DNA from: a virus
IMG/VR virus record: IMGVR_UViG_3300006310_000773
DNA: 64,000 bases
Direction: 5' to 3' (one strand)
Positions within the stretch are counted from its first letter, which is position 1. The number at the start of each line of letters is the position of its first letter. Of this stretch, positions 16,226-63,235 are shown piece by piece. Position numbers and translations under genes: made by a program. Below the pieces are notes generated by a model, which was given only the letters and a program-made list of their open reading frames with translations, was not told the origin of the DNA and ran no database searches.

Positions 16226-16255
16226 AATATACCATAATCAAAAAAAGTTAAAAAA

Positions 16256-16549: not shown

Positions 16550-16567
16550 TATTTATTCTCCTATTTA

Positions 16568-16882: not shown

Positions 16883-16901
16883 ATCTTTTCTCCTTTAATT
16901 A

Positions 16902-17105
16902 TTAAGAACCAAACTTATCTAAAAATCTTTGATAGGCTTGAGGCGATTTAAAACCAAGTTTTTGTGCTTTGCCGCCATCTGCACGAACTGTCTTTTTGAC
17001 TTCCTTTACAGCTTCTTTAACATGCTCTTTTACAGAATGTTCAGAGCTGCGTTCGTGTTTATCGTGTTCATGTTTATGATGATGTTTTTTACCATGTTCA
17101 GCCAT
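16902..17105 (-). CDS. His-rich small protein
   Basis: MAEHGKKHHHKHEHDKHERSSEH; GGAG SD. Confidence 0.55.
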   Translation of the reverse strand: MAEHGKKHHHKHEHDKHERSSEHSVKEHVKEAVKEVKKTVRADGGKAQKLGFKSPQAYQRFLDKFGS

Positions 17106-17119
17106 ATTAACTCCTTTAA

Positions 17120-18481
17120 TTATTCAGCTACTATTTTATAACCCATCTCCACATATTTAGGTATTTTATCCCTCATAACAAATACATATTCTTCTAATTC
17201 ATAATGTCCTACTGGTTTATCCATAAACATTAGAACATTAGCTCCCGGCCTAACCATTTTTTCTAATTGTTGTAATCTTTCATTTTCAAATTCTGACCAA
17301 TTATTTCCTTCCATCGCAGTAGGATCTTTTGCATCAACTTTATCTTTTAATGTTTTTATAACTTCTAATGGAGTAGATCTATGACCCACAAGATTTTCCA
17401 TTTCGTTTGCTTCTTCTACTGGTTCACCGTGTTTATTATGTTGAGCCCAAGCAAATGCATAAGCTTTGTCTGTTCCAACTTTCTTCTTTAGGGCTTTTAC
17501 TTGATGCTCTCTACCAGGAGGGGCTTCTTCATTTGAAAATTCTTCATATCCTGGATGACTAACCTTTTTAACCAATTTCTCTTTAGATTTAATTGCACGT
17601 TCTTTCCATTGTTTTTTAATTAATTCTCTGGTCGGTAAACCTTCTCTATAACTTCTTTCTTCTTTATAGCCCTGTTTTCTATTATGATCTTCAATATCAT
17701 TTGGATGTTGTATATTAATATTCTTTTCAACTTTTTTTTCTATATCTGGAAGATCATCTTTATTGGTGATTGTTTTAACATGCTTTTCAAACCGTTTCTT
17801 TCTTTTTGCTTTTAAATCTTCAATTAATTTTTTTCTATTGTGCGATTTTTGTTCGAGTTTAGGATTAACAGTCACTTTTTCCTTTTTCTTAGAAAGTTTC
17901 ATTTTTGGTTCTGGTTTTTCTTTTGGTGCTGGTGCTTCTTCCGGTTCAGGAGTTTGGTCTAGATCTCCATCATAATTTCCTTCTTCTTCACCTTCATAAT
18001 CCAATTCTTCTTCATCTTCTTCACCTCCCTCTTCATCTTCTTCTTCACCATTTTCGAATCCATGATGTTTCATTGAAGTTCGTAAATCATCGTGGTGTCC
18101 CGCCTTTTCATCATCTGGTAAAGTATCAAACATGGCTTTAGTAATATGATCTTTATCATGTTTAGGTGATTCTTCTTCACCTTCGCCGTCTCCTTCTTCT
18201 GCATCTAATCTGCTTTTTACTTCATCCTTTATTTCTGGACTCACTTTAGCGGTTTTTGCCCATTCATCAAATGTTTTACCTTTAGCAATAATCTTTAGTG
18301 CATCCATAACAGCGGCTTCATCTCCACCTGTCTTCTCTTTCTCAGGTGCCTCTTCAGTAACTTGTTGTTTCAACCAAGGAGGTCCACCGGTTATAGTCAA
18401 TGGTTGAACTTTAGCAGTTCCACTTACATTATTCCCACCAACTGTTAAAACTTGTACAATAGATTCATCTAAAGTTGACAT
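17120..18481 (-). CDS. Acidic/basic low-complexity protein, putative head internal protein
   Basis: Glu-rich tract; EEAPPGREHQVKALKK..AYAFAW module; many x-x-E sites. Confidence 0.5.
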   Translation of the reverse strand: MSTLDESIVQVLTVGGNNVSGTAKVQPLTITGGPPWLKQQVTEEAPEKEKTGGDEAAVMDALKIIAKGKTFDEWAKTAKVSPEIKDEVKSRLDAEEGDGEGEEESPKHDKDHITKAMFDTLPDDEKAGHHDDLRTSMKHHGFENGEEEDEEGGEEDEEELDYEGEEEGNYDGDLDQTPEPEEAPAPKEKPEPKMKLSKKKEKVTVNPKLEQKSHNRKKLIEDLKAKRKKRFEKHVKTITNKDDLPDIEKKVEKNINIQHPNDIEDHNRKQGYKEERSYREGLPTRELIKKQWKERAIKSKEKLVKKVSHPGYEEFSNEEAPPGREHQVKALKKKVGTDKAYAFAWAQHNKHGEPVEEANEMENLVGHRSTPLEVIKTLKDKVDAKDPTAMEGNNWSEFENERLQQLEKMVRPGANVLMFMDKPVGHYELEEYVFVMRDKIPKYVEMGYKIVAE

Positions 18482-18482
18482 A

Positions 18483-19874
18483 TTATTGTCCTATTCTAAT
18501 TGAATTATATTTTTGTGCTGATTTTAATGTTTTATTCGCATAATCTACTCTTGCTCCACCAACATTTACTTTTCTATCTGATATTAAAGCCTTATATTTT
18601 TTAGCATATTCTTTTTTTACTTTTGCTACTGGGCCTTCTTCTTGTGCTAATTCAACAGTTCCATATCCATCAACCTCTCCCGTAACATCTCTTTGCATTT
18701 TATACTTATATGTAGCATAAAGAAGTTTTTCTGCATCTTGTCCTGGAGTATCACCAGCATAAGATTTCACCATCTCAGGAGTTCCCCATTCCAACGGCCC
18801 ACGCGGATCTACATGTTGTCCAAATCTACCATTTTCTTGTGTGTCTGATGTATTCATTTTACCAGGATGTGGACCCCATGATAAAGATTCTAAAATTTGA
18901 TATAAAAATGGCCTGTTGAAAATATCCCCTTTTGTACAATTATAATCATGTTCTATATTTTCAAAAAGTTTATCTATTTTTTTCACAGAATTTTCTATAT
19001 TATCTTCTAATCCTTCTTTTCCGTGTTCAAACAATAACATATTACTAATTAATTTATCTGTTTCTTTCATCGCTTCAACAACATAAACATTATGCTTTGA
19101 TTGTGATAATATAATAGCTCTAAGTTCTTTGAAACATTCTTCAACTAAAGGCATATTTGAAAAATATTCTGTTTCATAATTTAAATAAACATATTCATTA
19201 TCCTTTTTTGGTCTATCAACAGTAAGTCTTTCAGGTCTAATTGGCCACTCTTTATCAAACATTGCCTCTCTTAAATTTAATCCCTTTCTAACATCCTTCA
19301 ACATTTTCATCGCGGATCTATCTGACATCGATTCCGGTAATCCTTTTTTAAATGATTCTATATCATTTTCTGATGCCGCTTTTCTCATTTTAGAAGCAGA
19401 CATTCCTGACACTCCTTCTGCATCTGGATCTCTTGTTCCTGCACTATGAACTTTAATGTAATCAAATTCATAATATCCATGTCTTGATTTTTTACCATTA
19501 TATTGTTCTAACAATTTTTTAAAATCTGCAACTCTATCACTTCCTACAACCATACATAAATTATCATACTGATCATTTAATTGTACTGCCGCCCCTAATG
19601 CATCTTTAATATTAATATCTCTGGAAAAAGTTTTAGCAAAATTAGGAAACATTTCCTTCATATATTTCATTTTTTGTTGATTAGTCAATGGATTCTTTTT
19701 AGAATCATGAGATTGACTTCCAAAAACATGTAATTCAGTATTATATCTTTTTGCTACATTACTTGCCCCTTCCAACAATCGACCATGCCCGGTTGTTGGT
19801 GGATTAAATCTACCAAAAACAAATACTCCTGTCTTACCTTTTGCTTCTTTTATGAGATTTTTATATGTTTTCAT
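18483..19874 (-). CDS. HIGH-superfamily (cytidylyltransferase/NMNAT-like) nucleotidyltransferase with C-terminal extension
   Basis: FGRFNPPTTGH, KNPL, VVGSDR, MSASKMR; N-terminus MKTYKNLIKE. Confidence 0.8.
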   Translation of the reverse strand: MKTYKNLIKEAKGKTGVFVFGRFNPPTTGHGRLLEGASNVAKRYNTELHVFGSQSHDSKKNPLTNQQKMKYMKEMFPNFAKTFSRDINIKDALGAAVQLNDQYDNLCMVVGSDRVADFKKLLEQYNGKKSRHGYYEFDYIKVHSAGTRDPDAEGVSGMSASKMRKAASENDIESFKKGLPESMSDRSAMKMLKDVRKGLNLREAMFDKEWPIRPERLTVDRPKKDNEYVYLNYETEYFSNMPLVEECFKELRAIILSQSKHNVYVVEAMKETDKLISNMLLFEHGKEGLEDNIENSVKKIDKLFENIEHDYNCTKGDIFNRPFLYQILESLSWGPHPGKMNTSDTQENGRFGQHVDPRGPLEWGTPEMVKSYAGDTPGQDAEKLLYATYKYKMQRDVTGEVDGYGTVELAQEEGPVAKVKKEYAKKYKALISDRKVNVGGARVDYANKTLKSAQKYNSIRIGQ

Positions 19875-20473
19875 TTTCCCTTAACCTTATCTCCAATTTT
19901 CTGATGCATACCAAAAGACAAATACCCACTATTGCCATCTTTTTTAAGTTGTTTTAAATGTTTTGATGCTACCCTTTTATTGCCAAGGAAAACAATTTCT
20001 CCTGAAGAATGTTGTGGAATTCTCTCAGGTTTTCCTTCTATTTTTACAACTCCATAATTTTGATTCTTGCCCATTCCCTCAAAGAATGATTTAAAATCTT
20101 TAAAAGTTCTCTCTTTGTCTGTTTCTACTTCTTCATGCCCCTTACCATATCCAGAACGTCCCCAACGACTGCCCTTTTGACTTTGTGGTTTCTTTCCATG
20201 CTTTTTCTTTTCTTTTTCATCTTCTCTTGTTCTATCTCTGTAAGTACTTGCTTCACCAAATTCTTTTTTAGCCATTCCTTTAACAAATTTTACGGATTGT
20301 CCTCTTCGTTTTTTTCTTATTTCGGGGCTCTTCATGCTATAATTTGCGCCAGTACTGTTGGGCTCTCTTCCTTGTACTTCTGCTTTTCTAGCAGCTCTAT
20401 AAAGCATGTCTTTAGACATTTCATCAATTTTATCGTCTTCTTTTTTCAAATATTCAGAGAATCTTTGACTCAT
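19871..20473 (-). CDS. Basic putative head internal protein
   Basis: MSQRFSEYLKKE; IDEMSKDMLYRAARKA module; internal RTFKDFKSFFE. Confidence 0.5.
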   Translation of the reverse strand: MSQRFSEYLKKEDDKIDEMSKDMLYRAARKAEVQGREPNSTGANYSMKSPEIRKKRRGQSVKFVKGMAKKEFGEASTYRDRTREDEKEKKKHGKKPQSQKGSRWGRSGYGKGHEEVETDKERTFKDFKSFFEGMGKNQNYGVVKIEGKPERIPQHSSGEIVFLGNKRVASKHLKQLKKDGNSGYLSFGMHQKIGDKVKGK

Positions 20474-20476
20474 ATT

Positions 20477-21454
20477 TTAATCCTGTCTTACAATTCCGGA
20501 AGCTTTACGATTTGCTCTTTGTGCCCTTCTCCAGGTATTTTCTTTATCCATCGCTTCTCTTTTCTTTTTTTCTTTGTCTTCAGGAGGAATACCCTGTCGA
20601 ACTTGGCCATACTTCTTTGCCATAGCGCGGTTTTTATCTAACGCTCTTTCATTCGCATCATCATCACCGGTGATCCCTTCTCCAACGGATTCTGCGTCTT
20701 CAGACTTCTGTGCTCGCCACTCTTTAAATGAAGTAAATCCGTAATCTACACTTTCCTTATAGTCAGGATTTTTTACAACTGTAGTGGTGGGGGAAGCTGT
20801 CTTCTTTTTTACTTTTGTTGAATGGCCTACATTATCTGGTATTTCTACACCTTCTTTTTTCGCATAAAACGCAGCACGATCTCTTTCTTGCTTATCTGGA
20901 GGTAGATGTCCTTTAGGTATATCCATTCCCTTTTTCTTAACGGGTACTTTTTTATGCACACTAGGGTTTGCTATTTTGTGTTGTGCAAAATGATCATCCC
21001 CCTTATACCACGCATCCCGTGCCCTTTCTTGATCATCCTCATTTACTTGTCCAGGAGTACCTTCATCAGAACTTCCTTGTTTATGTGGAGACGTTTCTGA
21101 ATTTCTTTTATCCGCCCGTCTTTTCGCAACTTGTTCAAAGGCTAATATAAACTCCTCCTTCTTTACTTCTTTTTTCTTATTCTTACTCTTTGATAATTGT
21201 CTTCTTAACAAATTAAAGAATTCAGGAGCTTCATCAACCATACCTAAAAATTGTTGAAGAACATTTATTAAAATTTGTCTTTCCACAACGGTTGTTATTG
21301 TCCCGCCTTTAATTTTTTTCAGTGCTGACTTAAAATAAGGTAAGTCCTTTTTGTCTTGAATTAATCCAGCCATAACCAGCTGTCTTAATTTTGTGGACAT
21401 ACCCTCTTCTTCGTCTATCATCACTTTATAAGACGTTTGTGTTAAACTATCCAT
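20477..21454 (-). CDS. Hypothetical protein, putative head internal protein
   Basis: Charged modular ORF; internal FTSFKEW. Confidence 0.5.
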   Translation of the reverse strand: MDSLTQTSYKVMIDEEEGMSTKLRQLVMAGLIQDKKDLPYFKSALKKIKGGTITTVVERQILINVLQQFLGMVDEAPEFFNLLRRQLSKSKNKKKEVKKEEFILAFEQVAKRRADKRNSETSPHKQGSSDEGTPGQVNEDDQERARDAWYKGDDHFAQHKIANPSVHKKVPVKKKGMDIPKGHLPPDKQERDRAAFYAKKEGVEIPDNVGHSTKVKKKTASPTTTVVKNPDYKESVDYGFTSFKEWRAQKSEDAESVGEGITGDDDANERALDKNRAMAKKYGQVRQGIPPEDKEKKKREAMDKENTWRRAQRANRKASGIVRQD

Positions 21455-21457
21455 TTA

Positions 21458-22690
21458 TTAGCTCCAATTCTTTAGTTCTACATTAAAATTATTTCTTGAA
21501 AATTCTAGCCGGTCAACCAATTTGACTGCTCCGCCTTTTATTTGATCTACCGCCACAAACCCCTCTGGAGCAGTTACTTTATAACCAGCACCATCTTTAA
21601 CAAAAGTTTGCGTTAATTGTTCCATATTTTCCAATTTAGATATTATCATCATTTTAGCATCAATTAACATATTCATTAAATCGAATATTTTTTCTAAATC
21701 AGCTTTCTTCTGTAGGAAGAACTTCAAAAACTCATTTTTCCGTTGTGTTTTTTTATCTTTAGCTGCATCAGTTTTTAATTTATTAATATCTTTATCGTAT
21801 TTATTTCCTATATATCTTATCAATTGTGTCACATGTGTTCTTGTATTTCTTATTTGTTGTCCTGTTTTTATCTTGCTATTATTAAAAGTTTTTATAATTG
21901 TATTAATTTCAGAATCATCAGCTATCGTGTTTAGCGTATTCGCTGATATGTTTTGAAAAGTTCTCCCTACAGAAGAAAGAATTTTAGTAATAGTCTCCGT
22001 GTCCCTTGCTGTGAAACTTGCTGTACCGGATGCATCAGTAAATTCTGCATCTCTAAACCAGATATCTTTATTCTTTAATAACCTGTTAATATTTATATTG
22101 AAAGACGATTTCATATCTTCTAATTTTGTACCTTTGTATTCCGTATGAAAAACAATGCCCATTTTTGAGTTTAATATCGTTTTTCCCAAATCAGAACCCA
22201 AAGGAACCGCATAAACTATAGTATTTGGATGAAAAGTGATATATCTCTCTCCTTCTATGGTTTTAATTAGCAAATCCTCTTTAGCAAACATCATATCTCC
22301 CTGTAATACTCCTTTAATTCCCAATTTTGGTAAATGTTCTAGAGCAACTTTTAACTTAGATCCAAGTCCAGGAGGATGATTATTATCAATATCTTGTGGT
22401 GTATAATTAATTTTGGGAGTTTTATTGAAAATACTTTTTGATCCAACAAAAAATTTACCATTATCAGGATTAATTCCACAAAAAACTGCAGGTGCACCAT
22501 CCCATTTAGTAGTAATGTAGGTATTTTTCATTGAAGAACCCGCTAACATATCTCTAAGCGATTGAATAAAATTGATTGAACCTCTGGTCCCATCCACTCC
22601 ACCATTTAAAACTTCATCTTCTATGTGTTCTAAATGTAGATTTTTACCGGTTTTCGCTTCACCAAGTAATATATTTATAAATGATTTCAT
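21458..22690 (-). CDS. DUF6267-like protein with ATP-dependent RNA-ligase-type motifs
   Basis: KNLHLEHIED; TTKWDG (motif I KxDG), LQGDMMF (III), PEGFV (IV), AVKLVDR (V). Confidence 0.7.
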   Translation of the reverse strand: MKSFINILLGEAKTGKNLHLEHIEDEVLNGGVDGTRGSINFIQSLRDMLAGSSMKNTYITTKWDGAPAVFCGINPDNGKFFVGSKSIFNKTPKINYTPQDIDNNHPPGLGSKLKVALEHLPKLGIKGVLQGDMMFAKEDLLIKTIEGERYITFHPNTIVYAVPLGSDLGKTILNSKMGIVFHTEYKGTKLEDMKSSFNININRLLKNKDIWFRDAEFTDASGTASFTARDTETITKILSSVGRTFQNISANTLNTIADDSEINTIIKTFNNSKIKTGQQIRNTRTHVTQLIRYIGNKYDKDINKLKTDAAKDKKTQRKNEFLKFFLQKKADLEKIFDLMNMLIDAKMMIISKLENMEQLTQTFVKDGAGYKVTAPEGFVAVDQIKGGAVKLVDRLEFSRNNFNVELKNWS

Positions 22691-22917
22691 GGTGTTAATG
22701 ATCCTGAAGATGGTTTATCTGGATTAACCCCCATATCTTTTAATTTGTCTCTAAGTTCTTTTACATCTTTTGCTGAAAAATCAAACTTGTTCCATGCATC
22801 ACCATAAAATCCTTTTAATCCTTTTCTATAAATTTGTACTTCACCTTCACGGCCATCAAATGACGCTATCATACCTCTTGGCATACCCTCTATTAAATGA
22901 TTTTTAAATGTTTTCAT
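22687..22917 (-). CDS. Small putative internal protein (76 aa)
   Basis: Restarted at ATG 22917 (TGATG overlap): MKTFKNHLIEG. Confidence 0.6.
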   Translation of the reverse strand: MKTFKNHLIEGMPRGMIASFDGREGEVQIYRKGLKGFYGDAWNKFDFSAKDVKELRDKLKDMGVNPDKPSSGSLTP

Positions 22918-23843
22918 CAAATTTTCCTTCCAATTTCTTTTGCAACAACTTCTCTTGTATAAATTTCTAACTCTGAAGAATATTCCCATCTCTTTCGTGG
23001 TATCTTGTATTTTGCAACAAATGCATCTATATTTTCTTGCTGTTCTTCATTTTCAATATTTCCATCTTCTTCTTCATTATCTACTTTAATTGGTATATAA
23101 TGAATTTTTTTAATCTTAATATTATTGACTATTTGTTCATCCCATGAACTATCTGTTTGTCTTTTTGATTTTGCATAACCATAAAATATACTACTCATTA
23201 CCTCTGAATTCTTTTTAATAATTTTCTCTACACCATCAAAATAATCTTTTATTACCAATCTTAATGCTTTACCATCTCCAGACATGTGTTTTTTCATGTC
23301 ATTCCAAAGTTCAAATTCAAATTCTCTTCGTACTCTATCTTTTCCCAGTATTGGACTAAGATGTTTTAATACAAGTTCTCTTATTAAATCATTAAGTTCA
23401 CGTTCTACTACTGCAAATTTGGGTCCTGTTCCACCCCTTTGTGCATTAGCAAACCAAGACATTTCAACCCATCTTCTACCTGCTGTATCTACAGTACTCA
23501 TTATATCATCTCTGGCAGATACAATAACATCCGCATCCAGTTCTGCAACAACGCCGCCCCCTGCAGCTATACCACCTTCCAAATAACGAGACATCATTGT
23601 GAAAAATGCTGAGATAGACCTCTTTCCCCCCTCAAGTTTTTTTAATTCATATAAGTTTTCTGCCCTCAGCACATGAAAAACTGTTGTACGTATCGTATCT
23701 GGCCATATCCTTTTAAACATGGGCCCTGAAATAGGAATCTTTAAAGCACTAGAGGCTCTCCCTTGACTTGCAACATCAAACACAAGATTTGACGCACTTG
23801 TTTGCGCAAATTCTGTTAAAAGTAGATCAAGATAGGATTTCAA
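22917..23843 (-). CDS. Hypothetical protein, tandem paralogue B (possible ADP-ribosyltransferase fold)
   Basis: TVFHV..SISAFF..GGGVVAELDA..GRRWVE..WDEQIVNNIKIKKIH shared with next gene. Confidence 0.5.
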   Translation of the reverse strand: MKSYLDLLLTEFAQTSASNLVFDVASQGRASSALKIPISGPMFKRIWPDTIRTTVFHVLRAENLYELKKLEGGKRSISAFFTMMSRYLEGGIAAGGGVVAELDADVIVSARDDIMSTVDTAGRRWVEMSWFANAQRGGTGPKFAVVERELNDLIRELVLKHLSPILGKDRVRREFEFELWNDMKKHMSGDGKALRLVIKDYFDGVEKIIKKNSEVMSSIFYGYAKSKRQTDSSWDEQIVNNIKIKKIHYIPIKVDNEEEDGNIENEEQQENIDAFVAKYKIPRKRWEYSSELEIYTREVVAKEIGRKI

Positions 23844-24778
23844 CCTTTACTTCTCCTCAAAGCTTGTACTTCTGTTTGTGCAATTTTAGTAACATAATTT
23901 GATAAGTCTCTAGCTCCATTCACCCAATGTGTATGAGGAATTTTACCTAATCTTGGAATTACTGAATCTTTTACCCAATCCAATTCAAACTGTCTAGAAT
24001 TAAAAGTATGAACCTTTATAATTTTAATTTTATCGACTACTTGTTCATCGTATACATTCCATTCTGATAATTCTGAATCTCCTCCTACCATACGACCAGA
24101 AGAAGGATGCTTAACTGCTACTGTTCCCCTTCTGACATAATATCCATGAACTGCTCCTTGAATATCTTTTTTATGCTTCTTGAGAATTGCATTTACACCA
24201 TCAATATAATCTGCAATTATCAAAGACATCACCTTTTTGTTATCTTTAAAATTTTCTCGTAAATGCCACCAAGCTCCCAATCCTATATCTGGTTCTATTT
24301 TTATGAGTTCTTTAGTTTTTGGATCATGTTTTATTGCAATATCTATTAACATCTGTTCAAGTTCTTTATGCATAGTCTTTTTTTTGTCTATGTTCATCAA
24401 TTCAACCCACCGTCTGCCGGTTTTATCTGGCATGCTCATCAGATCACCTTTACTTGACATAATAATATTTGCATCTAATTCTACAACAAGTCCGCCCCCA
24501 CCTTGTATACCATGTTCCATAGTATCAGCATCCATATTAAAAAAAGCAGAAATTGATTTTTTCCTATTCTGTAATTTCTTCAACTTCTCAAAACCAATAC
24601 CACTTGTAACATGAAACACCGTTGCTCTTGGTAATTGTACTTGAAAAATCCATTCCATTGTGCTAGATGTTAATGGAATTTGCATATACTGAATTTTTTG
24701 AAATTCAAATATTTTTTCAGAAGCGCTTCTTTGCCAAGCTGGCGGGTCTTCTTTTAGATATGTTTTAAATGTTTTCAT
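23840..24778 (-). CDS. Hypothetical protein, tandem paralogue A (possible ADP-ribosyltransferase fold)
   Basis: MKTFKTYLKE; TVFHVT..SISAFF..GGGLVVELDA..GRRWVE..YDEQVVDKIKIIKVH. Confidence 0.5.
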   Translation of the reverse strand: MKTFKTYLKEDPPAWQRSASEKIFEFQKIQYMQIPLTSSTMEWIFQVQLPRATVFHVTSGIGFEKLKKLQNRKKSISAFFNMDADTMEHGIQGGGGLVVELDANIIMSSKGDLMSMPDKTGRRWVELMNIDKKKTMHKELEQMLIDIAIKHDPKTKELIKIEPDIGLGAWWHLRENFKDNKKVMSLIIADYIDGVNAILKKHKKDIQGAVHGYYVRRGTVAVKHPSSGRMVGGDSELSEWNVYDEQVVDKIKIIKVHTFNSRQFELDWVKDSVIPRLGKIPHTHWVNGARDLSNYVTKIAQTEVQALRRSKG

Positions 24779-24985
24779 TTAAATTTCTCCACGAGCCGCA
24801 ATGTCCACCTTATCTTGACTCTTTGCCCACTTCTGAGCCTGGGATTTGTTTTTAAATTCATTAGAAACTGGCATCCATTTATTGTTCCCCACATGACCCA
24901 TTACATACCATTTTTTGTCGTTAGGGTTCTTGGAAACAATATACTTGGAATTTGCTTCTTCTAGATACTGTGAAAATGTTATCAT
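24779..24985 (-). CDS. Small putative internal protein
   Basis: MITFSQYLEEA N-terminus. Confidence 0.6.
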   Translation of the reverse strand: MITFSQYLEEANSKYIVSKNPNDKKWYVMGHVGNNKWMPVSNEFKNKSQAQKWAKSQDKVDIAARGEI

Positions 24986-25251
24986 CTTTTATAAAGTTTT
25001 TTAAAATCTACTCTTGTACCAGCTTCTTTTTCAAGTTTCTCTGGTGTTACCTTTTTTAACTTGGCACGTTCAAAATAACTATTTTTTCCATGTGTAGCCA
25101 CGAGCTTTATAAACATATTTTCTCCTTTCACACCAACTCTACCTGTATGCCAAGAGCTACCATCATATGCTACATATTTCTCAGTATTATCCTTAGATGT
25201 GTCCAAATAATATTCTACTTTTTCTTTTAGATGTTGTTTAAATGTTCGCAA
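24982..25251 (-). CDS. Small putative internal protein
   Basis: Restarted at TTG 25251 after GGAG SD: MRTFKQHLKE. Confidence 0.55.
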   Translation of the reverse strand: MRTFKQHLKEKVEYYLDTSKDNTEKYVAYDGSSWHTGRVGVKGENMFIKLVATHGKNSYFERAKLKKVTPEKLEKEAGTRVDFKKLYKR

Positions 25252-26869
25252 CTGAATCTCCTGAATTACCTGTTTTATTTGCAAGTGATACATGAAAAAT
25301 TCTCTTAGGATCTGGATTTGCTTGTATTAAATCAGTAACATAATCCTTGAGTTGTTTTTGCTGTTTTACTTTCGTATACCACGATACTCTTCCACCAAAC
25401 TTCACTTTCTTTGGTTTTTCAAACTCTAATTTAAAATTTGGGTCTGGTAAAGAATTATGAAATAATCTCTTTCTCAATTTTTTCCATTCAGGCCCAGATG
25501 CAAGAGTTATATGTAAATCTTTTATTGGTTTCATATCTGAATTTTTCGTCACAACACTATCTCTCATTTTTGATAATGCTCCCATATCTTTTGAAGATAA
25601 CATATACTTCAAAACACTTTCAACCTTGACCTCTTCTCTAATGTTATATTTGTTTTTGATTGCTCTCAATAATTCTAATTTATTATTTTTACCAGTTTTA
25701 ACTGCAAATTCAAGAGCGTGGTTGAGAGCATCTCCTACTTGTATCCCTTTCAGTCCTATTCCCATTAAATCTCTTCCTCCAATTGAAAGATCTTTAATTG
25801 ATGTCACCGTCATTCTTCTAAGTCTACTAGAAAGAGTAGGTCTATTCTTTACCTTTAAATATTCATCTATATTTGCGATACCTTTATTATCAACATTTTT
25901 TATAAATTGGACAAGTTTAAAATCATTTTTTTCTAAAAATGGAGAGTTATCTGTATATGTGACTACACTTTGAACTGCTTCAGCATCATTATTTGATAAT
26001 CTCATTTTACTTATAACCTCTTTTCCTGCATTTGAACCATATCCATTCATTAACATTCCCATAAATGCGGGAAATGCTTTTTTATCAAGTTTATCAATTG
26101 ATGCAAGATCAATTTTTCTTAAATTTGATTGTGGTAAAATATGATCAATTAATCCTGTATCAAATAATAATTTAATTCCAATACTAGGTTTCTCTGCTTT
26201 AGTAAACATCTTACGAAACTCTTCTTGAAATCTCTCTGCTGAAACTGTTGATATGGACTTTGCATTTTTCTTTATTTCTTCAAATGTTTTTGATTCAATC
26301 TTAAATTCAAATCTTGCCGCAAACTGTACCGCACGCAACATTCTCAATGGATCTTCTTCAAATGCAACTGGACTAATCATACGGATTTCCTTTTTCTTCA
26401 AATCCGTCATACCTTTTCGACCTATATCAATTACTTTTCCTGTGTCTAAATCTTTTGCAAGAGCATTAATCCAAAAATCTCTTCTTAATTGATCTTGTTG
26501 AAGTGTAATTCCCTTTCCTAATTTGACTTCAAAATCCTTATGTCCTTTTCCCGTACTCTTTGAATCTATTCTAGGAATTGAAATATCAATCTCTCCAGAA
26601 CCACCTTCTGGAGTATACTTAATAATACCAAAAGATTTTCCAACTAGATTTACCTTTCCAAATGGTTGCAAGATTTTACCCAAAGTCTCTAATTCTATTC
26701 CAACCACTAAAAGATCTAAATCTTTTGATACTTTTCCTAAAATTTCATCTCTTACCGCACCACCAATTTGATATATCTTACCGCCACCTCGTTTGACCGC
26801 ATTTCTTACATCAGTAGAAAGTGTTGCCGCAAGATCATTTTCATGTATTATTTGTTTGAAGGATTTCAT
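25238..26869 (-). CDS. cca: Class II tRNA nucleotidyltransferase (CCA-adding-like) fused to C-terminal 2H phosphoesterase
   Basis: GGAVRD..DLDL, RRDFWINALA, EDPLRMLR, SAERFQEEF; C-terminal LHITLA and FHVSLA (2H motifs). Confidence 0.85.
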   Translation of the reverse strand: MKSFKQIIHENDLAATLSTDVRNAVKRGGGKIYQIGGAVRDEILGKVSKDLDLLVVGIELETLGKILQPFGKVNLVGKSFGIIKYTPEGGSGEIDISIPRIDSKSTGKGHKDFEVKLGKGITLQQDQLRRDFWINALAKDLDTGKVIDIGRKGMTDLKKKEIRMISPVAFEEDPLRMLRAVQFAARFEFKIESKTFEEIKKNAKSISTVSAERFQEEFRKMFTKAEKPSIGIKLLFDTGLIDHILPQSNLRKIDLASIDKLDKKAFPAFMGMLMNGYGSNAGKEVISKMRLSNNDAEAVQSVVTYTDNSPFLEKNDFKLVQFIKNVDNKGIANIDEYLKVKNRPTLSSRLRRMTVTSIKDLSIGGRDLMGIGLKGIQVGDALNHALEFAVKTGKNNKLELLRAIKNKYNIREEVKVESVLKYMLSSKDMGALSKMRDSVVTKNSDMKPIKDLHITLASGPEWKKLRKRLFHNSLPDPNFKLEFEKPKKVKFGGRVSWYTKVKQQKQLKDYVTDLIQANPDPKRIFHVSLANKTGNSGDSVANI

Positions 26870-28856
26870 GAATACCGTGTGCTATAGATTTATATTTAAC
26901 CTGTTCATCTTGTTTTTTATTTCCATAAATTGCGTCATTAGCATTCTTTAGATGTTCAGCAAAACCTTTGTGTAATACCATTTCAAATTTAAATTGTCCA
27001 CCATATCCATTCCCATCTTCTCTAATTCCAATACCTGCAACAGGAATAACTTCTTTTGAACCTTCAACATTATATCCAATATAAGGGTTTCCTTTTTCAT
27101 CTTTCAATGGTTCAAAACGTTCACTTATTTTACTATAATCATCTGTACCAAATATATGTTTCATTGTATGTGGATCTAAAGAAAGATCCCCAATTGCCAT
27201 AACTTCTTCTCTTTCAGAAACGCCCTTCAATGGAAAATTACCTTTGATATCAGTCATCATTCCTTCTGTTAATTTAGGATTTTCTAGTATAGCCGTTATT
27301 GCCGCATCTTGATAATCTTGGCTAACTTGTCTATGTTCTTTAAGAAATTGTTTAGCTTCTCCATCACCAGCCTTCGCTACTTGATTTAATGCTGTCAACA
27401 ATACTTTTGATTTATCTCTAGTTAAATCCCACTTTCCGCCCTCTTTCTTGTTTGTTATCAGTTCTTTTAAATCACTAACTTTTTTTGACTTCATTAAGTC
27501 TGATAAAGGTGGTTCATTGGGATTAATTTTATCAAAATGTTTAGTTACCGCCTCTACTAATCTATTTCTTTGATTTTCCCCAAATAAAGATGCTTTAATG
27601 GGGTCTGGTAACTGGTCATCCCAAGCTTCAAATTTTCCTGTACCAGAATTTAAAAAGTTTACAAGTGTAGATTTTTTTAATGAAACTTCATGAAGAAAAC
27701 TGCCGCCCTTTCCTTTAACTCTGAAAAAAACATCTGTTGAATACCCTTTATTTTCATCATAACCTTCACCCCACATAGCCTCAACATCTTCTTTTGTATC
27801 CCAACAACCAAACTCTATTTCAGAACCTTCTCCATGTTCTTTTTTCAAATAATTAAATATTGCTTTTCTATTTCCGTGTGCCGCATCAACCCAAGAATCA
27901 TCAATTACTTTTTTCCTTTTTATCTTCCCCTTCTTATCTTTTTTATAATCAGGGTATGTGTCTTCTAAATCTTTATTATATTTTTTTAAAACATCTCTAA
28001 ATTGATCAGCATCTTTATCATCCATTGTTGTCATAGCCATTGTCATCAATTCTCCCGCTTGAGCAAAGATTTTACCAGCACCGCCCTTAACATCTGAATA
28101 ATTCTGATATTTTCCTGACGCCGCACCAGAGGCTTCACAATTTGCCATTCTTTCAATAAGATCAAAAACTCTAGGAGACACTTTTTTTCCACGCAAATTA
28201 TCTGGAATTTTAAATCTATCTGGTGGAGGGCCCTGAGTGGCAAATTTAACATTACCTAAAAATTCTTCTAAGTCTTTTCCTTTACCAATTGGTTCATTCA
28301 CTCTATCACTATTTTGTGCATCTTCAATACTTACTGTTTCAGTTTGTCTATGTTTATTTTTTTGATCGGATGTTTTTTCTTTTACTGTTGGTTTTTTCTC
28401 TGATTTTGTAACTACAGATTTTGCATTTTGAGTGTCAGATTTTACTCTTTTCTTTTTTGATTCAGAGGGATGTCGAAAATCGTGTGGGACTTCATCTTTA
28501 CTATAACCATGTTTCTCAGCTTTATCATCTTTCTGTTGGGTTTTTCTATCTAATTTTTGAATTTCTTCACCACCTGTCGGATGAGTTCCATTAACCCAAG
28601 CTGTAGCATGGATTGCATCATTAAAATATTCTCTTTTATTTTCACCATTTTTAACACCAACCCAAGAACCACTATTACTTTTATATATTACACCTCTTCT
28701 TAATTGTTTAAATCCTTGATGTTTCTTATCTTTTTGCTGCTTTGTGTGATGGGCATGTTGATCTACATGATATGCGTGTGGGTCTTTTGATTTGGAGTCT
28801 TTATCTATATAAGGGCCTGACTCTTCCCTTATAAATTGATTAAATGATTGTGGCAT
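26841..28856 (-). CDS. Large hypothetical protein, possible PD-(D/E)xK nuclease domain
   Basis: MPQSFNQFIREE; AGE..YSTDVFF..HEVSLKKS. Confidence 0.45.
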   Translation of the reverse strand: MPQSFNQFIREESGPYIDKDSKSKDPHAYHVDQHAHHTKQQKDKKHQGFKQLRRGVIYKSNSGSWVGVKNGENKREYFNDAIHATAWVNGTHPTGGEEIQKLDRKTQQKDDKAEKHGYSKDEVPHDFRHPSESKKKRVKSDTQNAKSVVTKSEKKPTVKEKTSDQKNKHRQTETVSIEDAQNSDRVNEPIGKGKDLEEFLGNVKFATQGPPPDRFKIPDNLRGKKVSPRVFDLIERMANCEASGAASGKYQNYSDVKGGAGKIFAQAGELMTMAMTTMDDKDADQFRDVLKKYNKDLEDTYPDYKKDKKGKIKRKKVIDDSWVDAAHGNRKAIFNYLKKEHGEGSEIEFGCWDTKEDVEAMWGEGYDENKGYSTDVFFRVKGKGGSFLHEVSLKKSTLVNFLNSGTGKFEAWDDQLPDPIKASLFGENQRNRLVEAVTKHFDKINPNEPPLSDLMKSKKVSDLKELITNKKEGGKWDLTRDKSKVLLTALNQVAKAGDGEAKQFLKEHRQVSQDYQDAAITAILENPKLTEGMMTDIKGNFPLKGVSEREEVMAIGDLSLDPHTMKHIFGTDDYSKISERFEPLKDEKGNPYIGYNVEGSKEVIPVAGIGIREDGNGYGGQFKFEMVLHKGFAEHLKNANDAIYGNKKQDEQVKYKSIAHGIHEILQTNNT

Positions 28857-28890
28857 AACTCAATATCCTGCTATAATTAAAGATTATAAC

Positions 28891-28898
28891 TATTTATG
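28891..28898 (-). promoter_or_regulatory. Possible T4-type late promoter (CATAAATA)
   Basis: Near-consensus motif ~35 bp upstream of 26841..28856. Confidence 0.45.
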
Positions 28899-28920
28899 TT
28901 TATAAAAATTGTCTCTTGAG

Positions 28921-30588
28921 TTATCTTGAAAGGAGTTTGAAGGCATTTTCTAATCCGCCGATGAGATAATTTTTCCCTAATTTTACATCTGCGATTTTTC
29001 CAGCTGGTTCTCCCCGAATGCTTTTCATATTTTTTAAATAATCCTTCATTGCCTTCATATTGGGATTTGCTGCTTTGGGGATTTTTACTATTCCACTTTT
29101 TTCCATATATTCTAAATGTTCACCACCCCTTAATGTAATGAGCCATTCTTTTCCTCCTGCACCAGGACCATGATCCCAACTTATAATATCAACAAGTGGT
29201 ACTCGTAATTTTTTAGCCATCGCTCCAATATCTGCTTTAGTAAGACCATTACCTTCTGTTAATATTTGTTTTGCGATATTTTCAATTGGGCCGTCATAAT
29301 CTTCAACATACTTGTTTAATTCATATTTACCACTATCCATTCCATAAATCTGCATGTGTAATCTTTTTTTAACAGATTTACCATCCTTTGTTAAATTGAC
29401 TTTTTTGATAGCGGTTTTGCCGGGTGATGGTTTTCTTTGCCCAAATGTAACTTCTCTGTCCCATGAATCTTGATCTACATCAAAACCATGAGCTTTTTTG
29501 GTGTGATCTTTTGCATGTTGAACTGCTGCGGAAAAAGTTGGATGATATATGTCATATGGTTTTCGTGCTTCTTCAATTCCTGCTTGGGCTTTATTGGATT
29601 TTTCAACCTCTTTCATAGAATCTTTTTTTGAAACATTACTTTTATTTTTCTCAAATTGTTTATAATTTTTATTTTCTCTCATTGGATTGTCAGAAATCTT
29701 AATCGTTGGATGATTCACTTTAGCTTTAGAAAGGGTACTCTTAACACCACTTTCTATTCCCTTTTCAACATGTAATGTATCATCTTTCCATTTAAATTTT
29801 CCTGAATGATTCTTTAAATGTTTATTAATTTTTTCTTTGTATGCTCTATTAGGAGTTACAAATTCTTCTAACACTTTTCCATCTTTGTAATGGGCGGCAT
29901 GTTTATGGTCACCTCCCCCTTTACGAATCTTATTTAATTTTCCATCATCCTGATATCTACTTGTACTATAATGTTGACCAGTTTTTGTATTTTTAATAGT
30001 ATACTGCGGTCTTTTTAAACTTTTTAGTAACTCTATGCTTTCCTCTACCTTTCCGCTTGCTTGTTTTTTCCGTTGTTCTTTATAGCGGTTATCTCGTTCT
30101 TGATGTATTTTTTCATACTTGTTTTCCATCTCTTTATCGAGACGTTTCGATTTCGCCCATTCAGATTCTTTTTTTGAAATTTTGTTTACTGCTTCTCTTT
30201 CACTTCGTTGCCTTCGATCATCAACTTCACCAAGTTCCAATTCTTCTTTAGGACCATATCCCTTAGGCGTTACATCTGTTATTTCTACACCTCGTAGTCT
30301 CGCACCCTTTCTCATACGTGCTGCAACTTCTGGTTTTGGATTACCTTTTTTGTCAAAGAACTTTGCGAGATGAGGTGGTAATTTTGATGCTTCATCAAAA
30401 TTGAAATCTTCTTTCATCAATTTCATACCCATTCTTTTTCGTATGACATTTATCTGCTTGATGATCTCTTTTTGTTTTGGTGAACCAGGCATAGATTTCA
30501 ACCCCTTCACCATCAATGCATACATATCTGCTGTATCTGATGATCCTTCTACAAGTTCTGTTTCCTGATAAGATTTAAACGTTTTCAT
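28921..30588 (-). CDS. Modular putative head internal (poly)protein
   Basis: MKTFKSYQETELVE; short modules separated by hydrophobic-x-E sites. Confidence 0.5.
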   Translation of the reverse strand: MKTFKSYQETELVEGSSDTADMYALMVKGLKSMPGSPKQKEIIKQINVIRKRMGMKLMKEDFNFDEASKLPPHLAKFFDKKGNPKPEVAARMRKGARLRGVEITDVTPKGYGPKEELELGEVDDRRQRSEREAVNKISKKESEWAKSKRLDKEMENKYEKIHQERDNRYKEQRKKQASGKVEESIELLKSLKRPQYTIKNTKTGQHYSTSRYQDDGKLNKIRKGGGDHKHAAHYKDGKVLEEFVTPNRAYKEKINKHLKNHSGKFKWKDDTLHVEKGIESGVKSTLSKAKVNHPTIKISDNPMRENKNYKQFEKNKSNVSKKDSMKEVEKSNKAQAGIEEARKPYDIYHPTFSAAVQHAKDHTKKAHGFDVDQDSWDREVTFGQRKPSPGKTAIKKVNLTKDGKSVKKRLHMQIYGMDSGKYELNKYVEDYDGPIENIAKQILTEGNGLTKADIGAMAKKLRVPLVDIISWDHGPGAGGKEWLITLRGGEHLEYMEKSGIVKIPKAANPNMKAMKDYLKNMKSIRGEPAGKIADVKLGKNYLIGGLENAFKLLSR

Positions 30589-31103
30589 TTCTTTAGTGCA
30601 TATCCTTTTTCATCTCGATACTTTATAATATTTTTTGCATCTTCTTTATCTTTTTTAGACATTCCATGTCCATAATTTCCATAATTGGGGGAATCTGGCA
30701 TTTTATTCACTTTCCCGCCCCTCTTCTTAAATTTCGCTATTGCATCAGCAAAGTTTGATTTATTTTCCTCTTCACCCATGATATGAAAAGTATCTTTAAC
30801 TCCTTGACTTCTTAAATGCTTATCAACTTTATCTACATGTTTCGCTGGAACATGAAGTTTTCCTTTTTTCCATTTGCCTTCTACATTAATATCAGACAAT
30901 GCCATCTTTACTTGTAATTCTAGGCCCTCATCTACAGTTTCTTGTAAAACTTCTGAATTTTCATCAGGAATTCTTTGTTCTTCTGGTGTCACTTCTGATT
31001 GAACTTCTTCTTCGGGGGCGTCGGGTGGATTTGCGGAAGGATTAACTACCTGCAAAACGGCTTTATTTAAATTTTCAAATTTTGATTTCTCAGTAAACCA
31101 CAT
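30585..31103 (-). CDS. Hypothetical protein, first gene of late cluster
   Basis: ORF preceded by CTAAATA late-like motif (31137..31143) and GGAG SD. Confidence 0.55.
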   Translation of the reverse strand: MWFTEKSKFENLNKAVLQVVNPSANPPDAPEEEVQSEVTPEEQRIPDENSEVLQETVDEGLELQVKMALSDINVEGKWKKGKLHVPAKHVDKVDKHLRSQGVKDTFHIMGEEENKSNFADAIAKFKKRGGKVNKMPDSPNYGNYGHGMSKKDKEDAKNIIKYRDEKGYALKK

Positions 31104-31139
31104 AATAGTCTCCGTAATAGTAATAGGTATTTGCTATAT

Positions 31140-59448: not shown

Positions 59449-60786
59449 TTACATCAAGTTAGCAACTTTGACCAATCTGTAATACACATTTTGGTTAGTC
59501 GCACCGAGTGTACCGTCGATGTCAACTGCACCAGCTGCGGCGGATGTAGCGAAAGGATTAGCTACCATACCATAACGAGTTTTAAACCCGATACGTGGCT
59601 GGAAGTTATCTTCACCAATTGCTCTTACCATTTGCAGTGGAACATATGGACAATAGAAAAGTCCAGCATCATAAGGACTAGAACCTTTGTAACCAACAAT
59701 CATATAGTTGGTTGCTTGGTTAGCCGCAAATGGATCAATGTAAACTTTGAATCGACCATTGAGAACACCAGCAAAAGTATTACCAGTATCATCAACGTTA
59801 ATTCCAGTTTGCATCGCTGGAGTGTAGTCTAGAACACCTGCCATTTGAAGTGCCGAAGCAACATCAGATGCACAAATGATCATGTTCCCTTTTCCTCTAC
59901 GTGTGTCTTTTGCTATCGCATTAGCTTCACGTTCGATTTGGAACATCAGACCTTTAAATTTTTCAACTGACCATCTACCGTTAGAGTCAACGTCTAAGTC
60001 GAAAGTACCTGCGGTTGCAGTACCATATGCTGCACCAGGTTTCGCTGACGAGCCAATGGAACGAATGACTTCTCTATTAATTTCAGCCAAAATTTCAGCG
60101 GAAAGAATATTAGCCAATTCAGTTTCAGCGTCAAGACCATGAATTGCTTTCAAGTCTTGTGCCAATTCCATTGAGTATGCACCTTTCAGTGCTCTACTTA
60201 CTGCGGTTACGGTTACCTTCTCGATTGAGAAAGCCATTTCTGGAATAGCGTCACCATCAACTTGAGGATCATTTGCGCCTCTTGTCTCTGCATTAGCTGT
60301 TGACATACCGGTATATGCCATATATCCAGAATCTGCAGGATTATCACCGGTTTGCGTGTTCGCTGCGTTGGTATTCGCTGAACCAAATGAAGTATTAGCT
60401 TCATTAAAGAGAGCCTCATCGCCACCTTGTGTAGCATATCTTGCTCTCATCGCAAAAATAAGACCGGTAGGTCCTGTCATCGGTTGTACACCACAAACGT
60501 CATACGCAACTAGGTTAGGCATCGCACGTCTTACCAACGAAATAAGTACTGGATCGTAGATATCTACTGATCCATCTCCAGCTGTAGAGCTGGAAGCACC
60601 CATGACATTAGTAGGACCTGACTCCGCTAAGAGCCCCATACCACCACGCGATTCGCGCATCATACGTTCTTGGTTTTCTAAAATTACAGCGGTCACCTGT
60701 CTTTTATAAGGATCTTTAATCTCATCCAAATCAGGATGATTGATCACAGGTGCCCACTTTTTTTGAATTTCTTCAGCAATATACAT
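59449..60786 (-). CDS. gp23: Major capsid protein
   Basis: DPVLISLVRRAMPNL, GVQPMTGPTGLIFAMR, FYCPYVPL, FQPRIGFKTRYG. Confidence 0.99.
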   Translation of the reverse strand: MYIAEEIQKKWAPVINHPDLDEIKDPYKRQVTAVILENQERMMRESRGGMGLLAESGPTNVMGASSSTAGDGSVDIYDPVLISLVRRAMPNLVAYDVCGVQPMTGPTGLIFAMRARYATQGGDEALFNEANTSFGSANTNAANTQTGDNPADSGYMAYTGMSTANAETRGANDPQVDGDAIPEMAFSIEKVTVTAVSRALKGAYSMELAQDLKAIHGLDAETELANILSAEILAEINREVIRSIGSSAKPGAAYGTATAGTFDLDVDSNGRWSVEKFKGLMFQIEREANAIAKDTRRGKGNMIICASDVASALQMAGVLDYTPAMQTGINVDDTGNTFAGVLNGRFKVYIDPFAANQATNYMIVGYKGSSPYDAGLFYCPYVPLQMVRAIGEDNFQPRIGFKTRYGMVANPFATSAAAGAVDIDGTLGATNQNVYYRLVKVANLM

Positions 60787-62152: not shown

Positions 62153-62800
62153 TTATAACTTAGAAATAAAATCAGCAAACGCATTTAGCTTAGCTTCTTC
62201 TAAAGTAACGCTTGTAGCTGATAAAATACTCTGCTTATATTTATCTATTTCTGTTTCTTTAATTATGCCGTTATCCCAAACCCATTCTTTTCCTTCCATA
62301 ATTCCTTCAACGAAGGCATTGGGGGCAGAAGGGTCTGCGACAATATCACCTGCTGTTGACAGATAATAATCATTTCCTACAACGCTTCCATTCCGTGTAG
62401 GGGTCAAAGATCCCATTCCTCTAGAAGATACTCCAAGTGTAGCACCCGCTGAAATAAGTTCTCTGACAATTTTACCATTTGGTGTATTTAAAATTTTAGC
62501 TTCGCCAACAAAATCATTTTTTTCTTGATCCAACTTTGTGATCATATGAGAAACCCTATCTAAATTAACAGTAGGGCCGTCAGGATGACCTAATTCACCA
62601 AATGCTCTATTTTTATTAACATATTCTTTATTGTATCTCTTAACTTCACTTTCGAGAACAGAAAGAGGATATGTTCTTTTATTTCTATTCATCTGTTCTG
62701 CTTGCATAAAGATTCCACGAATTTTATAATTCGTTGTTCCATCTTTTCCTTCTTCAGCAACATACTCTAATGCTTCAGAAACTTCTGTAATTAATTTCAT
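62153..62800 (-). CDS. gp21: Prohead protease
   Basis: MKLITE, GELGHP, GVSSRGMGS, DIVADPSAP. Confidence 0.97.
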   Translation of the reverse strand: MKLITEVSEALEYVAEEGKDGTTNYKIRGIFMQAEQMNRNKRTYPLSVLESEVKRYNKEYVNKNRAFGELGHPDGPTVNLDRVSHMITKLDQEKNDFVGEAKILNTPNGKIVRELISAGATLGVSSRGMGSLTPTRNGSVVGNDYYLSTAGDIVADPSAPNAFVEGIMEGKEWVWDNGIIKETEIDKYKQSILSATSVTLEEAKLNAFADFISKL

Positions 62801-62812: not shown

Positions 62813-63235
62813 TTATTTTTTCTTCCTTTTGGAAGCTCTCATAGATTTAATTCGATTCTTCCGTTTGGTTATAAGTTCTCTATACATTTTACCTCCTGCT
62901 CTTGTCCATGAAGTCATCTTAGCTTTTTGAGCTGGTGACTTTTTCAATCTCGCTACCATTCTCTCAATATTCGCCTTTTGACCAGGAGACTGTTTTTGTA
63001 ATTGTGAAGCTGATAAATCTTTTCTAACTCTTTGTTTTAAATAAGTAGTAAATTTTCTTCTAGCTTGTTTACGAAGAGCTTCCCTACCTCCTGTTGGAAT
63101 TGCTCTCATTTTATTTCTACGTAATCCCGCCATTCTTTTTGGTCTTGACCTGGCAAAATGTATTCTTTTTTTAAACCTTTGCGTCGGCGTCAATACTTCA
63201 TCTAATTCTTTTTTAAATTGTTTAAACGCCTTCAT
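62813..63235 (-). CDS. Basic prohead core protein (gp68-like position)
   Basis: MKAFKQFKKELDE; very basic; lies between portal and protease. Confidence 0.55.
   Translation of the reverse strand: MKAFKQFKKELDEVLTPTQRFKKRIHFARSRPKRMAGLRRNKMRAIPTGGREALRKQARRKFTTYLKQRVRKDLSASQLQKQSPGQKANIERMVARLKKSPAQKAKMTSWTRAGGKMYRELITKRKNRIKSMRASKRKKK

Follow-up and report, generated by a model that had tools for sequence, protein, structure and literature searches.

Capsid-targeting systems of the T-even phages have been known since the 1990s, and Alt, the ADP-ribosyltransferase of T4, is a packaged and injected enzyme that is processed by gp21, present in low copy, and active before phage genes are expressed. 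The capsid targeting sequences (CTS) of the T4 internal proteins (IP) IPI, IPII and IPIII were described by Mullaney and Black in 1996 (reviewed in PMC9026906 and PMC3012670), and in IPIII the targeting information resides in residues 4 and 7 and the processing information in residues 8 and 10 (PMC9026906). Here we examine a 64-kb stretch of viral DNA, IMG/VR record IMGVR_UViG_3300006310_000773 (the whole of it is called the window; ~30% G+C, every gene on the minus strand), in which 11 of the 14 genes of one block (genes A-N, running from 31103 to 17120) begin with a shared N-terminal pattern that we call the tag. We think it probable, at roughly four chances in five, that this tag is a genuine leader of the T4 type for capsid targeting and processing, borne by a large and mostly enzymatic set of cargo proteins.

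The window encodes both a T4-type head module and a T4-type replication module, and its capsid protein is 62-66% identical to those of the Methylophilales phage Melnitz, the pelagimyophages Mosig and HTVC008M, and T4-like cyanophages; judged by these genes, the source is a marine T4-like myovirus of the Kyanoviridae kind that has not been cultured. The T4-like phages that infect cyanobacteria, SAR11 and OM43 count among the most abundant marine viruses. What would be new here is that the tag reaches into these phages, that its cargo is large and enzymatic, and that it would account for virion enzymes so far unexplained.

The shared N-terminus and its likeness to the T4 leader

An earlier note on this DNA had listed the tagged N-termini and read them as capsid-targeting sequences. 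All 12 are found on the minus strand where it placed them, 11 within one operon (19871-30588) and one at 63235, beside the prohead protease gene. The 11 operon tags share the pattern M-[KR]-[TS]-[FY]-x-x-[Y/F/H/I/L]-[I/L]-x-E. In all 12, F or Y stands at position 4 (position 5 in the tags of genes C and L, MPQSF... and MSQRF..., which carry a one-residue insertion after the Met), with Y, F, H, I or L three residues later. The TTG starts at 25251 and 23843 have good Shine-Dalgarno sequences, and the tagged starts at 25251 and 22917 lie inside longer first-ATG open reading frames (ORFs) but overlap or abut the stop of the preceding gene.

The shared N-terminus is highly non-random. The earlier note had proposed a profile scan, on the view that its reading would fall if the motif were equally frequent at the N-termini of non-virion genes. 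A regular expression (regex) taken from T4 alone, ^MK[TS][FY], matches 7 of the 12 genes of block B-M and 0 of the 66 other genes (Fisher p = 3e-7), and the core regex matches 10 of 12 against 0 of 66 (p = 5e-11); as that note had claimed of the replication genes and the glyco-island, the replication, nucleotide-metabolism and sugar genes of the window are without the motif. With a leave-one-out matrix, 7 of the 12 tags outscore all 1220 other candidate starts, and each of the remaining five is equalled or exceeded by at most 5 of the 1220. The tags score 15-24 bits on the window matrix, and a scan of 31,836 stop-free positions, covering all three minus-strand frames, showed no internal copy above 11.7 bits outside the 12 N-termini. 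The triplet [LI]-x-E occurs in the first 18 residues of all 11 cluster genes tested, as against 23 of 67 genes elsewhere; by inspection it is present in 12 of 12 tags, ending at residue 10 or 11 in nine of them. The tags are encoded by A/U-rich codons (AAA ACA TTT AAA) at starts that are translationally coupled, and they differ from one another by synonymous codons and by F/Y and I/L exchanges, which indicates that the constraint acts on the peptide. The best near-match outside the tags is the start of a 395-aa gene in the nucleotide-metabolism block (45120-46307; MMNTYKDHQIE, 9.3 bits), and it is probably due to chance.

In the T4 record, MKTYQEFIAE opens both IPII and IPIII, and IPI opens with MKTFKEF and has an I-T-E further on. 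When a matrix derived from the 12 window tags alone is applied to 49 kb of T4, ipIII, ipII and ipI take ranks 1, 2 and 3 of 863 candidate starts. The positions defined in T4 (4, 7, 8 and 10) are conserved in the window tags and near-invariant in 112 metagenomic orthologues of gene G, in which positions 3 and 6 and the residues just past the Glu are variable, with indels.

The window also holds the presumed tag-removing enzyme, a gp21-type prohead serine protease that is 44% identical to T4 gp21 over 142 residues, the GELxHP and GVSSRG blocks included. In the window capsid protein, L-A-E/S-G-P aligns with the gp23 cut site of T4, L-T-E/A-E-I (the slash marks the cut), and the same position reads L-S-E in Melnitz and L-G-E in HTVC008M; taken with the gp21-type protease, these sites suggest that the [L/I]-x-E specificity of the prohead protease appears to be retained. 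The tagged, very basic protein encoded directly upstream of the protease gene had been called a prohead core protein. Its tag holds up, and homology to T4 gene 68 is not detectable, which leaves it a positional analogue of that gene and a candidate major internal protein. In the interval between portal and protease, the window (63239-63577, then 62813-63235), Melnitz and HTVC008M each have a small acidic protein followed by a basic one, and the basic protein has a tag-like start, SKTLSQFKQE in Melnitz and MITLSNLRKLTTE in HTVC008M. Cyanophage reviews describe gp67 and gp68 analogues as missing, with which this acidic and basic pair contrasts.

Tagged proteins in virions and in relatives

Gene M of the operon is an orthologue of the cyanophage cytidylyltransferase T4-GC190, which was detected in purified S-SM1 virions (Sullivan et al., PMC3037559). 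The S-CREM2 virion has 52 listed proteins (PMC10665884), and the same paper reports that kinases and cytidyltransferases are frequent in cyanophage virions, offering no mechanism. We translated 114 annotated S-CREM2 ORFs (ORF1-82 and ORF145-177) and found three matches to the core tag: ORF6, a SAM hydrolase (MKDFDSFLEE), ORF14, a kinase (MKRFDAFLTEE), and ORF154, a cytidylyltransferase (MKNFSSFLTE). These three are the 'regulatory' enzymes of the published virion proteome (hypergeometric p = 0.0019), and ORF13, a near-match (MKDLHSFLTE), is a virion protein as well. We did not find a link between the T4 CTS and cyanophage-type phages in the open-access literature, where the two terms occur together only in a T4 review; the reviews on pelagimyophages, on cyanophages and on the T4 superfamily are silent on the T4 CTS.

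The tag also recurs in relatives of the operon, above all on two of its proteins, the DUF6267 protein encoded by gene J and the HIGH-motif nucleotidyltransferase encoded by gene M. Melnitz has the same module after its helicase gene, with five tagged genes (MQGFKTFLSE; the DUF6267 protein; MKKFSELTSE; MKKFSEIIE, the nucleotidyltransferase; and MKNFKNHIAE), and in the syntenic module of Syn9 the tag is carried by the cytidyltransferase gp184 (MKKFSAFLSE) and by gp186. Across 80 IMG/VR loci that hold a DUF6267 relative, the core motif stands at the first start codon in 67 of the 78 DUF6267 genes that are complete and in 20 of the 21 nucleotidyltransferase genes. A large clade of DUF6267 proteins at 57-61% identity has a register one residue shorter, M-[KN]-F-T-[QE]-F-L-T-E. 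We also took representatives from 150 of the 2711 DUF6267 clusters at 50% identity; by the strict regex, 61 of the 118 stand-alone ones start with the tag followed by the domain's KNxHLEHxED, and others start directly there. The notion that untagged DUF6267 proteins belong to phages with a head of another type was dropped, as the nearest cultured relatives of an untagged representative were again T4-like; for the untagged representative examined, no locus was found in IMG/VR. A RimK-like ATP-grasp protein of Melnitz (82-1131, TTG start) begins TQKFSQFITEE, a high-scoring tag, so the cargo of relatives includes other enzyme classes.

Gene content around these two proteins varies with distance. 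In a relative whose DUF6267 gene is 97% identical the set is the same minus gene F, with B and L much altered (B is 72% identical, with indels). Gene F has no tblastn match in any relative locus compared, including two 97% relatives that span its position, and is a strain-level gain or loss within the operon. In the 80% relatives C, J, K, M and N are retained along with one longer G/H homologue, and there are additional tagged genes starting MKSFKSLFLSE (757 aa) and MKTFAEKCW (158 aa); the 60% relatives have only J and M in common with the window phage. The CCA-type enzyme of gene D is found in the closest relatives only. By this comparison, DUF6267 and the nucleotidyltransferase form the conserved core of the cargo in marine T4-like phages, and the rest, the CCA enzyme included, is lineage-specific. 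In two of the ~60% relatives (L025 and L056, ~11800-16900) sugar/nucleotidyl-sugar-type genes, with starts such as MKIALCLSGQ and MEVIVPAAG, lie between the DUF6267 and nucleotidyltransferase genes, which are far closer together in the window phage.

The claim that these N-termini are of the T4 capsid-targeting type is thus well supported, by the first three ranks of the T4 internal proteins, the gp21 homologue, the capsid cut site, the tag in relatives, and the proteomics of a tagged relative.

The operon and its predicted cargo

The 14 genes lie between the gp41 helicase gene (31140-32564) and small virion-type genes, and their stops and starts overlap or abut save for one 64-nt gap (28857-28920); genes B-J, L and M are the tagged ones (Table 1). 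Most tagged proteins are basic and Lys-rich, with pI 8.6-10 (12 for the protein starting at 63235); that of gene B has pI 9.7 and 16% Lys. Genes A, B, C, E, F, G, H, I, K, L and N have no match in Pfam, PHROGs or NCBIfam, and gene G has 1640 metagenomic relatives. The untagged proteins K and N have N-termini of their own that are conserved in the 80% relatives, M-D/Q-S/D-L-...-Y-x-V-M-[IV]-x-E for K and M-[SK]-x-L-x-E-S-I-[VIL]-Q for N, and these may be alternative protease or targeting leaders. Residues 9-15 of K form an offset core-like stretch, Y-K-V-M-I-D-E, which may be a variant of the tag.

Table 1. Head genes, operon genes A-N and promoter-like site of the window, with positions in window coordinates.
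Feature	Position	Strand	Length (aa)	N-terminus	Remarks
Tagged basic protein	62813..63235	-	140	MKAFKQFKKE, then L-D-E	pI 12; directly upstream of prohead protease
gp21-type prohead serine protease	62153..62800	-			presumed tag-removing enzyme; Pfam Peptidase_S77 2e-35
Scaffold	60824-62077	-			T4_CASP 2e-69
Major capsid protein	59449..60786	-			gp23 homologue, 36% identical to gp23
Gene A	30585..31103	-	172	untagged	no family; first after gp41 helicase; stop overlaps B start (ATGA)
Gene B	28921..30588	-	555	MKTFKSYQETE, then L-V-E at 12-14	no family
Late-promoter-like site	28891-28898	-			CATAAATA, T4/cyanophage type; in the sole sizeable operon gap, 42 nt upstream of 28856 start
Gene C	26841..28856	-	671	MPQSFNQFIREE, one-residue insertion	no family
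Gene D	25238..26869	-	543	MKSFKQIIHE	class II tRNA nucleotidyltransferase (CCA-adding type)
Gene E	24982..25251	-	89	(M)RTFKQHLKE	TTG start behind AGGAG
Gene F	24779..24985	-	68	MITFSQYLEE	
Gene G	23840..24778	-	312	MKTFKTYLKE	paralogue of H
Gene H	22917..23843	-	308	(M)KSYLDLLLTE	TTG start behind GAGGAG; 32% identical to G
Gene I	22687..22917	-	76	MKTFKNHLIE	
Gene J	21458..22690	-	410	MKSFINILLGE	DUF6267, Pfam 8e-116
Gene K	20477..21454	-	325	no N-terminal tag	N-terminus conserved in 80% relatives
Gene L	19871..20473	-	200	MSQRFSEYLKKE, one-residue insertion; I-D-E at 16-18	pI 10
Gene M	18483..19874	-	463	MKTYKNLIKE	HIGH-motif cytidylyltransferase/NMNAT-like
Gene N	17120..18481	-	453	untagged	acidic (pI 5.3); last of coupled block

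Several observations mark the tag as a module appended to unrelated proteins, among them the occurrence of DUF6267 both with and without it. Only G and H are detectably related, all other tagged pairs being unrelated at E <= 0.01, and by such comparisons at least 10 unrelated families are present among the cargo. Three cargo proteins have known domains, and these begin 7-23 residues past the Glu, with DUF6267 starting at residue 17, CTP_transf_like at residue 19 and PolyA_pol at residue 33; in gene M the tag is followed by AKGKTG and then by VFVFGRFNPPTTGH, the first strand of the nucleotidyltransferase domain. The AlphaFold models of J and G show the tag as disordered: pLDDT is under 50 for residues 1-12 of J and for residues 1-17 of G, which precede the folded body. 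Phage homologues of D, mostly from jumbo phages, align only from residues 19-32 onward and none comes from a cultured Kyanoviridae phage, so the CCA-type enzyme looks like a lineage-specific acquisition that received the tag.

The earlier note had described the cargo as enzymes, naming a CCA enzyme, a ligase-like protein, a HIGH-motif nucleotidyltransferase, and possible ADP-ribosyltransferases (24778 and 23843) and a nuclease; families, fold and motifs support the first three, and for the last two there are weak leads. Gene D matches Pfam PolyA_pol (PF01743; 1e-18, 68 bits against a cut-off of 23), PolyA_pol_RNAbd (PF12627; 4e-16, 59 bits against 22) and phrog_2244 (2e-59). It falls below the NCBIfam equivalog cut-offs (best CCA model 6e-41, 141 bits against 290; pcnB 112 against 306), and the match is therefore to be read as membership of the class II tRNA nucleotidyltransferase superfamily, compatible with either CCA- or A-adding specificity. 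The protein carries an extra C-terminal domain of ~130 aa (window 25238-25672) that no phage homologue covers, and its C-terminal 144 residues gave no 2H-phosphoesterase or other credible Pfam match at E <= 5. Gene M matches Pfam CTP_transf_like (2e-5, from residue 19) and phrog_3041 (1e-67).

For gene J, an AF2 model from a 110-sequence alignment reached pLDDT 91. In a VIA-align search of the DUF6267 model against representative structures, ligases took the first 11 places (Z 8.6-6.7; a Z of about 8 is 'middling' for this tool). Ten of these chains are RNA or tRNA ligases, including Naegleria NgrRnl (5cot, Z 8.6, rmsd 3.7, 185 aligned), tRNA ligases (Z 8.1 for 6n0t, and 7.9), REL1 (1xdn, 8.0), T4 Rnl2 (7.9 and 7.7) and T4 Rnl1 (6.8); the ranks after these were mostly DNA ligases. 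Residues K62, D64 and G65, conserved in at least 90% of 110 diverse sequences, correspond to motif I, K-x-D-G, and on sequence conservation E376-G377-x-V379 and K390 are compatible with ligase motifs IV and V. Foldseek returned nothing at E <= 0.001 for the model, with ligases in the lead (best DNA ligase I, E = 0.11), and when J, G or the DUF6267 profile was searched against PDB sequences, low-complexity noise was all that came up. We read gene J as a predicted RNA-ligase-like covalent nucleotidyltransferase. The adenylyltransferase fold of the RNA ligases (T4 Rnl1 and Rnl2, NgrRnl, kinetoplastid REL1, fungal Trl1 ligase domain) is its best, if middling, match, and K-x-D-G stands at the motif I position; unlike them, DUF6267 has a long helical insertion (~228-354), a different C-terminal module, and no sequence-level match.

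DUF6267 is also found fused to a HIGH-motif nucleotidyltransferase, in either order (phrog_455; P0247, P0315, P0377, P0385, P0265). These 'Rosetta stone' fusions suggest that the products of J and M work together; those with the nucleotidyltransferase domain at the N-terminus are without the tag. For gene G the model reached pLDDT 69, and its longest alignments were to DarT (Z 4.2 and 4.1), CteC (4.0) and Tpt1 (3.9), below any useful threshold; its invariant residues are R51, H56, S75/S77 and D244-E245, and an Atlas search gave unnamed viral clusters only. The same search with C gave restriction-endonuclease-like clusters at 0.87, under the 0.9 threshold for a lead, and so a weak lead.

A proposed route from packaging to injection, and its alternatives

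If the tag is a T4-type leader, a simple order of events can be proposed. Genes A-N form one translationally coupled operon downstream of the gp41 helicase gene, so the cargo proteins would be made together. Judging from T4 genetics, the first ~7 residues (aromatic at 4, hydrophobic at 7) would dock each protein onto the scaffolding core during prohead assembly. The gp21-type protease would then cut after the Glu of [IL]-x-E, at residues 8-14, as at L-A-E/S in the capsid protein; the tag would be lost, and the mature, mostly basic proteins would stay in the head with the DNA. In T4, an Asp in place of the Glu prevents processing and leaves targeting intact. At infection the cargo would exit with the DNA, purely by analogy with T4 IPI-III and Alt. 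The presence of three enzymes of nucleotidyl transfer on RNA or nucleotides (J, D and M) in the cargo suggests RNA/tRNA repair or nucleotide rescue at time zero. We speculate that the head carries an RNA-repair kit, consisting of DUF6267, the CCA enzyme with its extra end-healing-type domain, and the HIGH-motif nucleotidyltransferase, which would be injected to mend tRNAs or other RNAs cut by host anticodon-nuclease or tRNA-end-targeting defences before phage expression, with DUF6267 and the nucleotidyltransferase as its ancestral core in marine T4-like phages; in this specific form the idea is tentative and, on balance, unlikely.

The original proposal had placed late-like promoters at 31137 and 28891. 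The site at 28891 is a real CATAAATA, and the one at 31137 is only a partial match, ACTAAATA, that overlaps the helicase stop codon. With a single promoter-like site and read-through from the helicase gene possible, late transcription of the cluster is a possibility only. Across 16500-32800, sigma-70-like promoters and terminators occur at chance level; this and the frequency of TATAAATA make timing unreadable from the sequence.

A number of points weigh against a packaged and injected cargo. TATAAATA is not enriched in the window (8 observed, 14 expected), no terminator separates the helicase gene from the operon, and a site that fits the sigma-70 consensus perfectly (32729-32756, minus strand; TTGACA, 16 nt, TG-extended TATAAT) is located in the gene preceding the gp41 helicase gene, ~165 nt upstream of the helicase start; it is likely an early or middle promoter, and its transcripts could read through into the cargo operon. 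The Glu position deviates in four tags, those at 30588 and 63235 do not pass the strict regex, and genes A, K and N of the block are without a tag. The Syn9 DUF6267 gene, gp183, is untagged as annotated, and since some DUF6267 proteins lack the tag, tagging is not obligatory for the family. The S-CREM2 authors note that abundant enzymes might co-purify with virions (PMC10665884). Finally, the phage is uncultured and known here from sequence alone, and ejection and early activity, while plausible, draw on the T4 analogy.

The tagged proteins might instead enter the prohead and serve there as assembly, scaffolding or DNA-condensing parts, either degraded like gp22, gp67 and gp68 or acting as histone-like counter-ions, and not as host effectors. 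The basic, Lys-rich composition of most of them (the pI values given above) would fit such a role, as would the fact that gp21 also processes T4 core proteins, and the products of B, L and the untagged K are without family, Lys-rich and highly charged, with B and L evolving fast and with indels. We nevertheless consider it improbable, for three of the cargo proteins are intact conserved enzymes (KxDG in DUF6267, HIGH in M, the class II motifs in D), and the tagged S-CREM2 proteins are present in mature virions and are thus not degraded away.

Still less probable, we think, is that the shared N-terminus reflects messenger RNA or translation initiation in an AT-rich operon, or is a tag for a protease degron, a membrane or a chaperone. 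The A/U-rich codons at coupled starts are what such an origin might leave, in a phage known only from its sequence; but conservation is at the level of amino acids, with F/Y, I/L and synonymous changes and a one-residue register shift all keeping the pattern, highly expressed late genes (capsid, scaffold) are without the motif, and the match to the T4 tag is at four genetically defined positions and predicts S-CREM2 virion content. Common descent of a duplicated gene family, or chance, is the least credible account and in our view very improbable: G and H are indeed paralogous and short motifs do recur in AT-rich genomes, but the other pairs are unrelated at the threshold used above, three proteins belong to different known superfamilies, and neither the 66 other genes nor any internal position has the motif. 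A capsid-targeting and processing leader remains the reading we favor.

If that reading is right, the unexplained 'non-structural' enzymes that recur in the virion proteomes of marine T4-like phages, suspected by some to be contaminants, would become a testable feature through a tag that predicts cargo. Metagenomes could then be used to list which proteins an uncultured phage packages and probably injects. DUF6267, which has thousands of members but no known function, would gain a fold and a place in the infection cycle. Variable cargo beside a conserved core looks like an arms-race locus, and the tags could offer natural means of loading proteins into non-coliphage capsids.

How does this locus compare with systems already described? 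Like the T4 internal proteins, it combines a leader of ~10 residues, M-K-T-[FY]-x-x-[F/Y]-[I/L]-x-E, with a nearby gp21-family protease, and the proteins that bear the leader are mostly basic and otherwise unrelated. The internal proteins of T4 are three in number, small (95-193 aa) and non-enzymatic, and their genes are spread over ~8 kb; the window phage, as read from its sequence, differs in having eleven tagged genes in one coupled operon of ~11 kb, encoding proteins of up to 671 aa, several of them enzymes. T4 Alt provides the precedent for packing a large enzyme into a T4-type head and delivering it together with the DNA. Among the virion enzymes of S-SM1 and S-CREM2, the cytidylyltransferase is orthologous to gene M and all the S-CREM2 ones are tagged alike; the papers that report them give no mechanism for their presence and raise the possibility of contamination, and the tag would supply a mechanism. 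The window phage differs from those phages in its CCA-type enzyme and in other cargo that cultured relatives do not have. Variable cargo around a conserved core, as seen in marine T4-like phages, resembles the polymorphic internal-protein loci of the T-even phages.

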